From positions 2,888 through 66,887 of the IMG/VR virus record IMGVR_UViG_3300019927_000008: DNA of 64,000 bases. One strand, 5' to 3'. Of this stretch, positions 10,031 through 25,143 are shown piece after piece. The position numbers and the translations under genes are program-made. Within the stretch, counting starts at the first letter, position 1, and every line of letters starts with the position of its first letter. The notes beneath the pieces were generated by a model. The model was given only the letters and a program-made list of their open reading frames with translations. It searched no databases and was not told the DNA's origin. This DNA comes from a virus.

Positions 10031-10531
10031 ATGACAGAGAACACCGAAGCTGTTGCTGAAGAAGAGCCTGAAGAAGATAGTGCGAACATCAGCCGTCTCC
10101 GAGAGATGGCACTCCGTGGTGACGACTATCGTGAAGTCATCGAGGACTTCACGTACTACGGGTTGGAGGGCGACCTCTACGTCCGTCCGCTGACAGACCC
10201 CGAGTTCCTTCCCATCGCTTCCTTCCTCGAAGAGCGCCTTGGCCTCGATCCCGAGGAAGCTCAGGAAGCGATGGAGGAAGAGAAGGACGGTCAGGGCAAC
10301 ATCAGCGCCGAGCAGTTCGACAAGGAATTTGTCGCCATCATGCACCAAGCGGCGGCAACGGGGATCGACACAACCCAAGGCATCGCAGAGGGCGAAGACG
10401 AAGAGGGTGTCGCTGAAATTCTGAAAATGCTTCAGGGTGGCAAGTCCCTCGTGATCGCAGAACGGGTGTTGGAAATCTCGTCTGACGCCGAGAAGGCCGA
10501 GCAGTTTCGCAGAGATGGGGGCGGCGAGTAG
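10031..10531 (+). CDS. Tail assembly chaperone (gpG-like)
   Basis: Between tube and tape measure; ends in GGG GGC GGC GAG TAG. Confidence 0.7.
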   Translation: MTENTEAVAEEEPEEDSANISRLREMALRGDDYREVIEDFTYYGLEGDLYVRPLTDPEFLPIASFLEERLGLDPEEAQEAMEEEKDGQGNISAEQFDKEFVAIMHQAAATGIDTTQGIAEGEDEEGVAEILKMLQGGKSLVIAERVLEISSDAEKAEQFRRDGGGE

Positions 10532-10823
10532 TTTCAAAAACAGGATAGAGAACCATTCGAATGGAATCACCGACCTTCCCGGTGTAGACCACATGGGGGA
10601 CCTGACTCCGTTTCAGAATCAGGTTCTCGACGCCGCTCAACGGAAGGAAGCTGAAGAGAAAGAGCGGAAACGCGAAGAAGCGAGGAACAACAGCGGCGGT
10701 GGTGGACAGCCGAGCCGACCTCGCAACTCTCGCGCTGGTGGTGGCGATGGAATGGGCGGTGAAGAAACCGTCCGGTACGTCAACGAATCCGAACAACCCG
10801 ATCACGAAATCCACGATAACTAA
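10515..10823 (+). CDS. Frameshift extension of tail assembly chaperone (gpT-like)
   Basis: Overlaps the chaperone 3' end in the +1/-2 frame and stops exactly at the tape measure start (TAATG). Confidence 0.6.
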   Translation: MGAASSFKNRIENHSNGITDLPGVDHMGDLTPFQNQVLDAAQRKEAEEKERKREEARNNSGGGGQPSRPRNSRAGGGDGMGGEETVRYVNESEQPDHEIHDN

Positions 10824-21292: not shown

Positions 21293-21459
21293 TGTTCGGA
21301 ATCGACTTCATCACGAACGTAGCGATGAACAACCCCGTGGAAATCCTACTCTGGACCCACGGGTTCTTCGTGGCGCTGGCACTCCGCCGGGGTCGCATCA
21401 AAACGATCCTCGACAAGACACTCCCCGGACAGTCCGACAGCGAGAAGGGTGGGGATTGA
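21292..21459 (+). CDS. 55-aa membrane protein (holin-like candidate), not in ORF track
   Basis: TGATG coupling; MFGIDFITNVAMNNPVEILLWTHGFFVALALRRGRIK..., hydrophobic segment followed by basic residues. Confidence 0.5.
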   Translation: MFGIDFITNVAMNNPVEILLWTHGFFVALALRRGRIKTILDKTLPGQSDSEKGGD

Positions 21460-21572
21460 TGGGAGAGTACGTTCAATGCCCAAATCCTAATCAACCTGCC
21501 TGCTCCGGTGTGGTCTTCATGGGCGGTAGTTGTCCAGTCTGTCCAGAGTGCGGTTGGTCGAAGTGTGGATAG
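21459..21572 (+). CDS. 37-aa zinc-ribbon peptide, not in ORF track
   Basis: TGATG coupling; MGEYVQCPNPNQPACSGVVFMGGSCPVCPECGWSKCG. Confidence 0.5.
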   Translation: MGEYVQCPNPNQPACSGVVFMGGSCPVCPECGWSKCG

Positions 21573-21719
21573 CGGAAGAGCCGGGATTCGAACCCGGAAT
21601 CCGGAGTGTACGGGGACTTACTGAAAGAGCGATTAGATAGCACTCGATCATCAGCACTCCCTACTCCGATGAACTTCAGTTTAACCCGAAGCGCCTTTGT
21701 CCAATTTGGCTACTCATCC
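21573..21719 (-). ncRNA. tRNA-like RNA (147 nt) with about 76-nt variable region and 8-nt anticodon loop
   Basis: Acceptor GGATGAG/CTCTTCC, Leu/Ser-type D arm, anticodon stem CTTCG/TGAAG with loop GGTTAAAC, T arm CCGGG-TTCGAAT-CCCGG; promoter at 21725-21755. Confidence 0.8.
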
Positions 21720-21724
21720 TTGCT

Positions 21725-21755
21725 GAAGAAATATTCAGGGGGGAGTTAAGTCTTT
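21725..21755 (-). promoter_or_regulatory. Viral promoter for the tRNA-like RNA
   Basis: AAAGACTTAACTC-N-TTTCTTC, ending 5 nt before the RNA. Confidence 0.65.
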
Positions 21756-21759
21756 ATTA

Positions 21760-22581
21760 CTAACGGTGGAACGGACAGGCTGAATCAGATGAATCAATAT
21801 CTTCGGTTGATGGAATGTTTCGTGTTCCCGTTTTACTAACCCACATTTCATCTCGGTAAACAGATGAATGTGAAGTGATTTTGGTCTGTGTAGTTTCTTG
21901 ATCCATTTTTTCTTTTTCAGTCATGGATCGTACATTTGCATCTGTTATCATTGAATCTCTTTTAAACGGAATTACCTGAACGAGAGGAGTCCCGACATCT
22001 AAAACACCTCGCCATTCACCTCCAGTCCAGAGGAATGGGGCATTTATTGTATTGAAGTATTGGTCCACATCAACTACTCCCGAAAAGGTCTGGAACAATT
22101 GATTCTGTCGGTTCATCGGAGAGGTGATAATAGCCGAATACCCATCCGGTGCTTTTATCGACCAATAATTGAGGAACTTGTAAATAGACCAATCATCGAG
22201 CGGGAACGAGTCCCCTCCAATTTGATCTGGACTATGGGAATCAATGAGGTCTTTTTTAAACCCCCAATCAAATCGAACATTGCTATCTTCATCTGATTCC
22301 ACGTTTACTTCCCCGGCAAGTGGAATGATCCACCCCATCGTCATGGCTTCCATGAAAGGGGCGCAACGCTTTACAGAGGAATCTGATGCTCGGTTCTTAT
22401 CGAGTTTGCCTTCGAGTTTTTTGTACCATTCGGGCAATACCTTGTTTGCAGGTATTGGCTCAGGGATAGCACCATAGAGTTCCTTTGGACAGACAAACTC
22501 GATGATCTCATCATCACCAGAAAGGTGTTTGTAGCCCGACAGGTCTTTGACTCGATCAGTAACGCTGGAGAAATCAAGCAT
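21760..22581 (-). CDS. DUF6065-like protein (dUTPase-like fold)
   Basis: KRCAPFMEAM-GWIIP, YKFLNYWSIKAPDGYS, SGVVDVD and GTPLVQVIPFKR motifs recalled from this phage family; own promoter at 22586-22616. Confidence 0.55.
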   Translation of the reverse strand: MLDFSSVTDRVKDLSGYKHLSGDDEIIEFVCPKELYGAIPEPIPANKVLPEWYKKLEGKLDKNRASDSSVKRCAPFMEAMTMGWIIPLAGEVNVESDEDSNVRFDWGFKKDLIDSHSPDQIGGDSFPLDDWSIYKFLNYWSIKAPDGYSAIITSPMNRQNQLFQTFSGVVDVDQYFNTINAPFLWTGGEWRGVLDVGTPLVQVIPFKRDSMITDANVRSMTEKEKMDQETTQTKITSHSSVYRDEMWVSKTGTRNIPSTEDIDSSDSACPFHR

Positions 22582-22623
22582 GAATAAACAATCAAGCTCC
22601 GGAGAGTTAAGTCTTACGTAACG

Positions 22624-22878
22624 ATGACGAAATTACGTGCTGTACTTGGAATCGCAGACTTCTTTGTTCCCGCAGATGTTCTAAGTAGCGTTCTTCTCGT
22701 CTTCACGATGGAGAACATCCTCGATCAACTGTTTTCAACTTACGTTCCGGCTGGACTGCAAACCGAAGCGTGGGTAGCGATCTATCTAATTGGCGCGTTA
22801 GTGGTATCAGGATTTAATTACGCAACTGCTGGCGAAGAAGAGCTGGAAGAACTTAGCGACGACTTCGACGATCTATAG
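22624..22878 (+). CDS. Small membrane protein (2-3 TM segments)
   Basis: Hydrophobic segments followed by an acidic tail. Confidence 0.5.
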   Translation: MTKLRAVLGIADFFVPADVLSSVLLVFTMENILDQLFSTYVPAGLQTEAWVAIYLIGALVVSGFNYATAGEEELEELSDDFDDL

Positions 22879-23370
22879 ATTACACCGGGTGGGTTCGGGG
22901 CGGGAGTTTGGCTTCACAGCAATGGTTACTCGGTGATCGCGGCTTCGGCTTGTTCTCTGATCCTGCCAGCTTCAACTTTCTCTGTCGGCTGGCGGGACTC
23001 ATCCTTTTCGATACGTTCCATTTCGGACATTACAAACGCAACTTGCCGAGGCCCTAACTCCATAACTTCATATTCTTTTCCAGACACAAAAGCTTCACCC
23101 CGTTACCCCTTGGGTTAACCCCTGAGGGGTAGCGGGGCTTTTTTGCTTTCCCTGTGTTGACCCCGATATGTTGACCCCACACCCTTCTCGCTGTAGAACT
23201 TCTTTGAGGGACTTGGGAAGTCATCCTTATTCTAACTGAAGAAGGATATATACGACCATTCAAGGAAATGTCCCCGGCTCCTATCCTCGTCCCCTATACG
23301 ACCTGAACGAGGTTCGGCACGCAACCACCCGAAGATGGTCGCTTCCGTTTGCGGTGGGGTGTACTCAACC

Positions 23371-23401
23371 TAAGAAAAGAGTCTCCGCACCTTAAGTCTT
23401 A
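23371..23401 (-). promoter_or_regulatory. Viral promoter driving a non-coding structured region
   Basis: TAAGACT-N17-TTTCTTA. Confidence 0.65.
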
Positions 23402-23403
23402 CC

Positions 23404-24102
23404 TTATGGCGCTCGGAGACTGTTGTTGTTCAGTACGTCTTTGTACGCCGAGAAGGTCAGCGGGGACCAGTCCATCGCTTCCGAGACGACAGCCTTTGCG
23501 AAAGCTTGCGCCTCGGGTTGGGCCTTGGCGTTGTCGCGGAGATCGAGGAAGTGCATCAGGCTCCGAGCATTGGCCGAGAACGAGAGGTTGACCTTGGTCC
23601 CGAGCGGGAGGACGTAGCGGGCCTTCTGCGGCTCTACGCCCTTCTCTTCGACGAGGTGATCGTAGGCATCGAAGGCGGCCTTGTAGTGACTATCGAAGGT
23701 CGTTTCGGCAGAGTAGTGCAGATCGGCTTCGTTCTCGTCAGGGTTCATATCGGGAAGGGTCGCGGCGGCCTCGTCGAAGTCCACGTAGCGCATGGACTGC
23801 ACGTCCCAACTCATGTGACGGTGGCGCGTGATCTGACGCTCGACGACCACCGAAAGTCCCTCTACAGCGAAGAAGGCCTGCGGGTGTTCGAAGGGACCGA
23901 AGTGGCCTCGGTAGAGCAGGTCTTCGATTAGCGCCGGGAGGTCTTTGTCGGTTTCCTCCATGGCCTTCTCGAAGTCAGCCCCGGCGAGACTGTCGTTCAT
24001 GTAGTCTCCCCTCGCCGCCATCGCCGCTGTCTCGTCCGGGTTCTGCGTACTTCGGTCAGTCTTCAGTTCAACGGTGAAGCCGTAGGTGTCGTTTTCGTAC
24101 AT
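23404..24102 (-). CDS. thyX: Flavin-dependent thymidylate synthase
   Basis: ThyX signature RHRHMSWDVQSMRY and GHFGPFEH; start moved to the ATG at 24102 (TAATG coupling). Confidence 0.95.
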   Translation of the reverse strand: MYENDTYGFTVELKTDRSTQNPDETAAMAARGDYMNDSLAGADFEKAMEETDKDLPALIEDLLYRGHFGPFEHPQAFFAVEGLSVVVERQITRHRHMSWDVQSMRYVDFDEAAATLPDMNPDENEADLHYSAETTFDSHYKAAFDAYDHLVEEKGVEPQKARYVLPLGTKVNLSFSANARSLMHFLDLRDNAKAQPEAQAFAKAVVSEAMDWSPLTFSAYKDVLNNNSLRAP

Positions 24103-25143
24103 TAGTAGTCCTCGTGGATGATTGCTCGGTTGTAGTTCGGGGCGATGCAAATGCACTCAGAGTCGGAAATATTGAGTGTCATTCCAGCGCCAGTCCCGTA
24201 GTTAACTTCTCGCTTCACTTCTCTCGAACATTGCGGACAGGGTTTCGTTCCCATTACGCGAACAGGAGTCCGAGGATGAAGCCGACGACGAGCGAGACGA
24301 CGTGGAAAGTCTGTTCTGCGATGACGAAGGTTTCGTTCATGATTGGGTTTCTTCGAAGCTGTGTTCGTCGCAACGGTGCGCCTTGAACGTTCGACTGTGG
24401 GTTCGGTCCCACCAGTCGTCTCGTTCTTCAACTACGGTGTGGAAGCCGACTCTCGCAACGTGAGTAGCTTCGTTGCCGCAGTAGCAGTCTCTCCGGATCG
24501 AGAGGTCCGGTGGTAGATCGGAGTGGCGATCTTTGTAGTAGCTAACCGAGACGACGTTGTAGCGGTCGCACTCGATGTAGCTACCTTCACCGTGAACGTG
24601 ATCGGTCACTCTATGCTATTCCGAAATCGGTCGAACAGCTCCATCCAACCGTATTTCTCGACGAGCGGTTCCATCGGTTCTATTTTGTCCGTTTCGAAAG
24701 CGTGCATGAACTTCATCAGCTCTTTTTCCGAAAGGACATCTTCCTCTTCACCTTCGACTATCTTTTCAGCCGCTTCTTCGCTGAAGCCGATGGCTTTCAG
24801 TCGTTGGACTCTGACGCTAATGTCGCTCATGTGCTTGCCTCGCAGAACGGACAGATGAACGTTCCAACTGCGTTCTTCACGAAGAACATATCGTGTTCTT
24901 CGCAATACTTTTCGAGCATCTGATCTTCGTAGTTGCTTACGTCTACCATGAAATTTATTTGAATGTTTCCAGCGTAACCTGTCGTGAGTCTGGTTCGAAT
25001 TTCTTACACCGACCACCACAGGCCGGGCACTTCACATCCTCCGGGCCGTGAGAGTAGATGTGCGCTCGTTCTCCTCTCAACAAACTGGCGCTGAGGAAGA
25101 GAACGAGAAAGATGGTGAGCGCCATAAGGTAGAGAAGAGGCAT

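Follow-up and report, generated by a model that had tools for sequence, protein, structure and literature searches.

What kind of RNA does a virus encode when it keeps the acceptor, D, and T arms of a tRNA, places an over-long hairpin at the anticodon position, and carries a variable arm of 67 nt? The question is raised by a 147-nt gene in a haloarchaeal tailed virus whose genes resemble those of HRTV, HCTV, and Serpecor1. The gene lies in the window (the whole 64,000-nt stretch of DNA that was analysed), which makes up most of a 71.8-kb viral contig from IMG/VR that is 96% complete. The usual class II variable arm is 13–20 nt long, and to our knowledge the variable arms of known tRNAs end at about two dozen nucleotides. 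The first-pass annotation had proposed a giant tRNA-like RNA that stands alone and bears a long nested variable arm, and direct reading, Rfam, and covariation among homologues support that description.

Setting and architecture of the RNA gene

The late (structural) genes of this virus are on the plus strand and stop at 21572, and the replication genes (PolB, ThyX, and others) head towards them on the minus strand. The RNA gene, also on the minus strand, sits exactly where the two modules converge, and its position at the 21572/21573 junction bears out the earlier statement that it is antisense-convergent to the end of the late operon. CCA is not encoded at its 3' end. The features that matter for the analysis are as follows (coordinates are those of the window).

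21573–21719, minus strand: tRNA-shaped RNA gene, 147 nt (G1 at 21719, discriminator G73 at 21573)
21713–21719, minus strand: 5' strand of the acceptor stem, GGAUGAG, pairing with 21574–21580
21693–21710, minus strand: D arm, GCC-AAAUUGGACAAA-GGC, with a 3-bp stem and a 12-nt loop that holds the conserved GG
21673–21692, minus strand: hairpin at the anticodon position, GCUUCGG-GUUAAA-CUGAAGU, with a 6-bp stem plus a G26·U44 pair
21602–21668, minus strand: hypertrophied variable arm, 67 nt (76 nt with linkers)
21581–21597, minus strand: T arm, CCGGG-UUCGAAU-CCCGG, invariant in all four known copies except for one loop base
21574–21580, minus strand: 3' strand of the acceptor stem, CUCUUCC, followed by the discriminator G at 21573
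21746–21757, minus strand: A/T-rich box ATAAAGACTTAA, a candidate archaeal TATA/BRE element that begins 38 nt upstream of G1
21459–21572, plus strand: zinc-ribbon microprotein of 37 aa, MGEYVQCPNPNQPACSGVVFMGGSCPVCPECGWSKCG, with the motif C-x2-C-x-ECGWS-x-CG

The body of the molecule is that of a canonical tRNA: a 7-bp acceptor stem, a D arm bearing GG, and a T arm with a T-psi-C loop are found in the four homologues. In the window copy the acceptor stem consists of six pairs and a U4·U69 mismatch, and every copy has one such mismatch (U·C in the relative G002, introduced below). The linkers are short, with UA between the acceptor stem and the D arm, a single G between the D arm and the anticodon-type hairpin, UUCAU between that hairpin and the long arm, and GAUU between the long arm and the T arm.

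The other two parts depart from the standard plan. In a canonical anticodon arm, a 5-bp stem carries a loop of 7 nt in which residue 33 is U and residue 37 a purine; here the stem is 6–7 bp and the loop 6 nt. The same hairpin can also be read as CUUCG-GGUUAAAC-UGAAG, and its loop is 8 or 10 nt if inner pairs open. The 8-nt anticodon loop described earlier therefore holds with the G-C pair open and shrinks to 6 nt if that closing pair forms. Canonical variable regions are 4–5 nt (class I) or ∼10–24 nt (class II) long, compared to 76 nt here and 76–80 nt in the homologues. Read from its 5' side, the arm runs CGGAGU, A, GGGA ... GAGUG-CUAUCUAAU-CGCUC ... UCCC, CGUAC, ACUCCG, which gives a base helix (CGGAGU/ACUCCG), a middle helix (GGGA/UCCC), and a distal part (UGA/UCA plus GAGUG/CGCUC) whose last helix closes a 9-nt tip loop. 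All four arm helices listed in the first pass are present in the window copy, but one of them (CUGA/UCAG) is not maintained in G002, and its extended six-pair form, UGCUGA/UCAGUA, has three mismatches there. A UGA/UCA pairing that extends the tip hairpin suits all four sequences better.

The Rfam tRNA model (RF00005) spans the entire 147 nt and scores 31.4 bits against a gathering cut-off of 29, in focused searches and in searches of the virus' own genome; the match is absent from a whole-window gathering scan run with fast filters. Default ARAGORN makes no call at 21573–21719. No Rfam family other than tRNA matches the RNA, and the ribozyme models (hammerhead and other small ribozymes) gave no match at E values up to 10 in 21450–21850. 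Elsewhere in the window there is a tRNA cluster (42278–43499, minus strand) with odd members, including a tRNA with a 2-base anticodon at 42485–42557 and an 86-nt "tRNA-Asp(AUC)" at 43286–43371 (both ARAGORN calls); a tRNA-Tyr call at 42875–42950 was not recovered by the whole-window Rfam scan.

Several origins and motifs were considered for the arm itself. Its comparison with the rest of the virus and with 401 sampled host genomes gave only chance matches of 12–27 nt, on which grounds we reject the arm as a copy of, or antisense to, a host or viral sequence; it is neither a repeat nor a mobile element in these genomes. A K-turn is not supported on direct reading. The string UUUCAGAC followed by CCC resembles the 5' portion of the type I-B CRISPR repeat in haloarchaea, a likeness that does not extend to the Cas6-binding part and is not conserved in the window copy.

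Homologues, covariation, and neighborhood

A BLAST search over related viral records recovered one further copy, at 73% identity, in the complete 71.4-kb relative G002. From this sequence and the window copy we built a covariance model (R1) and used it to search metagenome contigs reached via the neighboring thyX gene, where it found two more distinct copies, in contigs L298 (161 bits) and L294 (62 bits). R1 scores 181 bits on the window copy and 179, 161, and 62 bits on the homologues. The check by homologues and covariation that had been suggested for the first-pass reading yielded three further distinct homologues and compensatory changes. The family as known comprises only four distinct sequences, three of which are close relatives. 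In L298, the arm is nearly identical to that of the window copy and the acceptor stem is different; the sequence in L294, which is identical to that in L296, has a divergent arm. Among near-complete related viruses, two of eight carry the RNA.

Other searches extended the family no further. Exact and degenerate DNA patterns of the element, compared with the viral contig collection, found only G002, and in BLAST searches of phage and plasmid collections the element matched through its T arm only. No homologue of the RNA was found in 151 sampled Halobacteria genomes, in which the best matches are ordinary tRNAs (≤43 bits).

Some other tRNA-like sequences came to light as well. The string AGTCCCCGTA, with GGGTTCRAATCCC 8–20 nt on, is a conserved tRNA feature of Microbacteriaceae (Microbacterium, Agromyces, and Leifsonia; L165–L244), and apart from that string this tRNA is unrelated to the viral RNA. 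On the Halobaculum halophilum plasmid NZ_CP058532.1 (W01), many T-arm-like matches crowd into 13 kb, at ∼45–58 kb, suggesting that this haloarchaeal plasmid has a dense array of tRNAs or tRNA-like elements. At a similar map position in a related virus that is without the giant-arm RNA lies a truncated, tRNA-like stretch of ∼61 nt (L043; G003:24044–24104, minus strand); it scores 27.6 bits with the Rfam tRNA model, which is below the cut-off.

The substitutions that separate the copies respect the fold. When the two sequences of R1 are compared, 95.8% of cells are paired and nine pairs show double changes, as opposed to zero to three in slid controls; the observed value was reached by 2 of 500 shuffles. 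For all four sequences, the RNAalifold structure is the cloverleaf together with the long arm; of its 40 pairs, 15 show double changes. Across the four homologues, double compensatory changes occur in three of seven columns of the acceptor stem, in five of six columns of the anticodon-type hairpin (100% of whose cells are paired in the two-sequence comparison), and in four of five columns in both the base helix and the tip helix of the arm. The D and T stems are invariant (with G-U allowed in the D stem, in all four copies), and UGG/CGG is kept in the D loop. The L294 arm is unrelated in sequence to that of the window copy and follows the same plan of three helices, with 5 bp at the base, 3 bp of G/C in the middle, and 10 bp at the distal end, capped by an 11-nt loop; each helix is separated from the next by an internal loop, and the loop nearer the base is asymmetric. 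Because compensatory changes fall in both the acceptor stem and the anticodon-type hairpin, and in the helices at either end of the long arm, the tRNA-shaped RNA is, on this comparative evidence, a selected RNA and not a decaying gene. Given that the sequence of the arm is not conserved across the family, any sequence-specific cargo role would have to be specific to a lineage.

These results bear directly on whether the locus could be a decaying tRNA pseudogene, or a tRNA broken by an inert insertion. Each copy does have one mismatch in its acceptor stem, default tRNA finders miss the gene, and its distribution among relatives is sporadic. However, the random, uncompensated decay that the first-pass annotation named as the mark of a pseudogene was not seen in the homologues. 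Instead, there are 9–15 double compensatory changes across the helices, those of the insertion included, and the architecture is kept at 73% identity and beyond, with an arm that is no repeat or mobile element in these genomes. We therefore regard decay as very improbable.

The gene has kept its place at the end of a transcription unit rather than a fixed slot. In the window, L298, and L294, it is co-oriented with the replication genes and forms the final feature ahead of the late genes that run towards it. The G002 copy is found 1.3 kb further along, on the opposite strand, where it again closes its unit. We count this difference in slot and strand in favor of an independent gene. The adjoining genes also vary; the window has a DUF6065-like ORF, and L298 an SNase-like one. 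As a separate observation, the late/replication junction (window 21573–24600 compared with L044, L294, L298, and L299) is a hotspot of gene swapping, in which the DUF6065-like ORF at 21760–22581, the SNase-like ORF, thyX, and several small ORFs are gained or lost between close relatives, and within which the RNA gene switches slot and strand.

Two neighbors of the gene deserve attention. The A/T-rich box upstream of G1 is identical in L298 despite diverged flanks and a different upstream gene, and L294 has a similar box, AATTATTCTTAA, at the same distance. This conservation plausibly reflects an independent archaeal promoter; the earlier claim that the RNA has its own promoter gains a candidate element from it, though it stops short of proof. 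On the other side, the late operon ends with the gene of the zinc-ribbon microprotein, whose stop codon directly adjoins the 3' end of the RNA gene. The microprotein is encoded in all four RNA-carrying contigs and is absent from four relatives that lack the RNA, but five further viruses have the microprotein with the RNA nowhere in the record, so the link between the two is probably positional. A protein-database search with the microprotein found nothing; the L294 version shows a weak resemblance to the zinc ribbon of the RNA polymerase subunit RPAB4 (E = 0.007).

Splicing, amino-acid identity, and decoding

A tRNA gene with a long insert may simply be a gene with an intron, and an atypically placed intron was among the options raised in the first pass. 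Run in intron mode, ARAGORN calls a tRNA-Leu(UAA) with a 65-nt intron at 37/38 and the anticodon stem UUCGG/CCGUA; removal of the intron after position 37 would leave an 83-nt tRNA. The position of the 3' partner, CCG(UA/AG), is homologous across the homologues, and the spliced stem has four of five pairs in the window copy and five of five in L294, one of them changed on both sides from U-A to C-G (L294 forms a perfect CUCGG/CCGAG stem once ∼70 nt are deleted). Euryarchaeal splicing endonucleases require a strict bulge-helix-bulge (BHB) motif, and a scan that allowed 2–4-nt bulges and one mismatch found none at homologous positions in the four sequences, which confirms the earlier statement that no canonical BHB motif is present. 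The window copy has a relaxed version only (three of four central pairs and one 2-nt bulge), and G002 and L294 are without even that.

The proposed anticodon stem fares no better when the copies are compared. It has three of five pairs in G002 and likewise in L298. In G002, UU in the 5' strand of the anticodon stem has become CC and the partner inside the supposed intron has changed in step, from CUGAAG to CCGGGC, with the supposed exon partner CCGUA unchanged. The 5' strand thus covaries perfectly with the supposed intron rather than with the supposed exon. Moreover, splicing would yield a tRNA with G73, one additional base separating positions 26 and 27, and an unstructured variable region of 11 nt that is neither class I nor class II. 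When every segment was deleted in turn and the product passed to ARAGORN, no excision gave the same canonical tRNA in all four copies. An intron-bearing tRNA gene has been reported in the halovirus HGTV-1 (PMC13532342), which counts in favor of this reading. HF1-group viruses encode the ligase RtcB (PMC7230728). No RtcB gene was found in this virus, which is neutral for the intron reading because the host has RtcB. Altogether, with an unconserved BHB and a covarying unspliced fold, we disfavor an intron and consider it improbable, keeping it on the list on account of the perfect L294 stem and the homologously placed CCG partner.

If the RNA is not spliced, could it be charged? The discriminator is G73 in all four copies. 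Serine identity is set by G73 and the long variable arm, independently of the anticodon, and a change from A73 to G73 converts leucine tRNAs to serine; archaeal LeuRS requires A73 along with specific bases of the arm (PMC9976931). The viral RNA has G73 and a long variable arm, the latter much exaggerated, and it has neither a serine anticodon nor the minor determinant G30-C40 (the loop reads UUAA, and pair 30-40 is C-G). It also lacks the A73 of tRNA-Leu(UAA). In Halorubrum depositum, the serine tRNAs have G73 and all five leucine tRNAs read have A73. The best-scoring host tRNAs are mostly tRNA-Ser(GGA/UGA) (34–43 bits): of the ten best host loci examined, seven carry these tRNAs and two carry tRNA-Arg, including the single highest match. 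Judged from these determinants, the RNA would most likely carry serine, should it be charged at all.

Whether such an RNA could decode is a question of its anticodon-type hairpin. In three copies this has 6 bp and a GUUAAA or AUUAAA loop, and in L294 it has 7 bp and a UUAAUC loop. UUAA is present in the loop of all four, with a register that shifts between copies, and position 37 would be U in L294. When the arm was shortened, ARAGORN reported a loop of 8 nt in which the anticodon has four bases (ttaa or taat). The geometry of the hairpin argues against decoding, and we judge that, over-long and with a 6-nt loop, it is probably unfit for the normal process. The conserved UUAA equals U33 plus the UAA anticodon of tRNA-Leu, so decoding could still matter.

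Codon use in the virus does not support a decoding role. TTA is the rarest leucine codon (1.3 per 1000), and its use in viruses that carry the RNA is 1.6–1.7 per 1000 versus 3.9–4.3 in those that do not, a comparison confounded by GC content. Supplementation for a rare codon is not supported, TTA being rare and rarer still in the carriers. In relatives, the residues aligned with TTA and TTG codons are Leu, Ile, Val, or Met and in no case Ser, for which reason reassignment of UUA to serine is rejected. There are no in-frame TTA-A sites with an open +1 continuation on the coding strand, and the tail-chaperone shift site is without TTAA; quadruplet UUAA frameshifting has no candidate sites. The earlier alternative of reading the loop as UUA, that is, as an ochre suppressor, is unlikely because TAA is the commonest stop in the virus (29 of 63 ORFs).

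Two observations made along the way concern sequence composition and frameshifting. TTAA is under-represented in the whole window, with 68 sites compared to 105 ± 9 in dinucleotide-preserving shuffles, a shortage that might come from avoiding either TAA stops on both strands or a restriction site. At 10505–10532 (plus strand), TTT-CGC stands directly before the stop of the tail-chaperone ORF; this motif is described as a conserved candidate for +1 frameshifting in the HF1 group of haloviruses (PMC7230728).

It is nevertheless conceivable that the RNA works as a tRNA, can be charged, and reads UUA/UUG with an anticodon loop enlarged to 8 nt, through UAA or the quadruplet UUAA, its arm being tolerated on the ribosome. 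With G73 and the long arm, it would most likely carry serine, whose identity elements disregard the anticodon (PMC9976931). The retention of UUAA in every copy, the fully intact body (elbow elements included), and the 4-base anticodon reported after arm shortening are all in keeping with this. Nonetheless, stem and loop geometry varies between copies and U37 appears in L294, the codons in question align with leucine and other hydrophobic residues and never with serine, and TTA is scarcest in the very viruses that have the RNA. Neither an in-frame TTA-A site with an open +1 continuation on a coding strand nor the A73 needed for archaeal leucine identity is present. On balance we think a working tRNA unlikely.

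Relation to known RNAs and candidate roles

Much of the viral RNA is shared with the class II tRNAs of haloarchaea: the 7-bp acceptor stem, the 3-bp D stem and large GG-containing loop, the UUCGAAU T loop, and the origin of the arm between the anticodon and T stems. With host tRNA-Ser it shares G73, and with host tRNA-Leu(UAA) it shares U-UAA in the loop (CUUAAGA in the host). In contrast, its arm is 67–76 nt compared to 14–16 nt in the host tRNAs read, its anticodon-type stem and loop are 6–7 bp and 6 nt rather than 5 bp and 7 nt, and its discriminator and anticodon indicate different amino acids. tRNA-Sec and the allo-tRNAs are serine-identity tRNAs with unusual stems (9/4, 8/5, and 8/4) and non-serine anticodons. 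The viral RNA is, we presume, like them in its G73, long variable arm, 6-bp anticodon stem, and non-serine anticodon, and presumably unlike them in its ordinary 7/5 acceptor/T layout, its 6-nt loop, and an arm that is several times longer.

Comparison may also be made with RNAs in which a tRNA form carries or borders something else. Archaeal pre-tRNAs with BHB introns likewise have a long structured insert within a tRNA gene, and ARAGORN models the viral insert in that way (65 nt at 37/38); the viral RNA differs in having no conserved 3-4-3 motif and in covariation that favors the unspliced fold. The BHB intron of Haloferax tRNA-Trp carries a box C/D guide RNA, and the window copy does hold a box C-like UGAUGA. 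A box C/D guide was nevertheless rejected, in that UGAUGA occurs only in the window copy and L298 (G002 has CGAUGA) and there is no downstream box D (CUGA). Haloferax t-elements, mascRNA, and the YrlA RNAs of bacteria and phages are also tRNA-shaped modules that should suit tRNA-processing enzymes, and they are non-decoding, as we infer for the viral RNA. The t-elements and mascRNA have an incomplete cloverleaf without a proper anticodon arm, and YrlA is circularly permuted, whereas the viral RNA retains all four arms and adds a giant fifth.

The reading we favor, with a probability of roughly one half, is that the locus is a stand-alone, selected viral gene built on a class II (Ser/Leu-type) scaffold, the product of which would act as a tRNA-processed, non-decoding mimic or scaffold. 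The RNA would be transcribed from its own A/T-rich promoter box. It would then be trimmed by RNase P and tRNase Z and receive CCA as a tRNA does, making it stable; the intact acceptor stem and elbow imply maturation by these tRNA-processing enzymes. It would not decode codons. As a tRNA mimic, it may present the long arm as a stable scaffold, or it may soak up a host factor that recognizes tRNA shape. Such a factor might be a defense nuclease that targets tRNAs, or else seryl-tRNA synthetase, for which the long variable arm and G73 matter and the anticodon does not.

The mimic might also be a viral weapon or shield that can be charged with serine, acting as a decoy or competitor for a tRNA-targeting defense enzyme or SerRS, or as a poison tRNA. 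In the poison version, it would bind the very rare UUA codons and the giant arm would prevent normal use. We hold this to be possible and rather doubtful. Still less probable, in our estimation, is a role as a tRNA-like 3'-end element of a transcription unit, with cleavage by RNase P and tRNase Z setting or stabilizing the end of the upstream mRNA and insulating the convergent operons. It would fit the position of the RNA, which is last in its transcription unit at the late/early convergence in all four contigs, even where inverted (G002). However, the conserved A/T-rich box directly upstream suggests a promoter of its own, a processing signal has no need of a covarying 70-nt arm or of a conserved UUAA hairpin, and six of the eight near-complete relatives manage without the RNA.

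For annotation, the favored reading, that of a processed non-decoding mimic or scaffold, carries a caution, in that tRNA finders used in intron mode would label this RNA as an intron-containing tRNA-Leu. The family indicates that the tRNA scaffold accommodates a large natural insert at the variable position. A covariation-backed arm of ∼70 nt on an otherwise complete cloverleaf, found in several archaeal virus lineages, is a tRNA-like RNA of a new form. Should the tRNA enzymes of the host charge or bind it, it would be a new route by which archaeal viruses disturb translation or evade tRNA-directed immunity.
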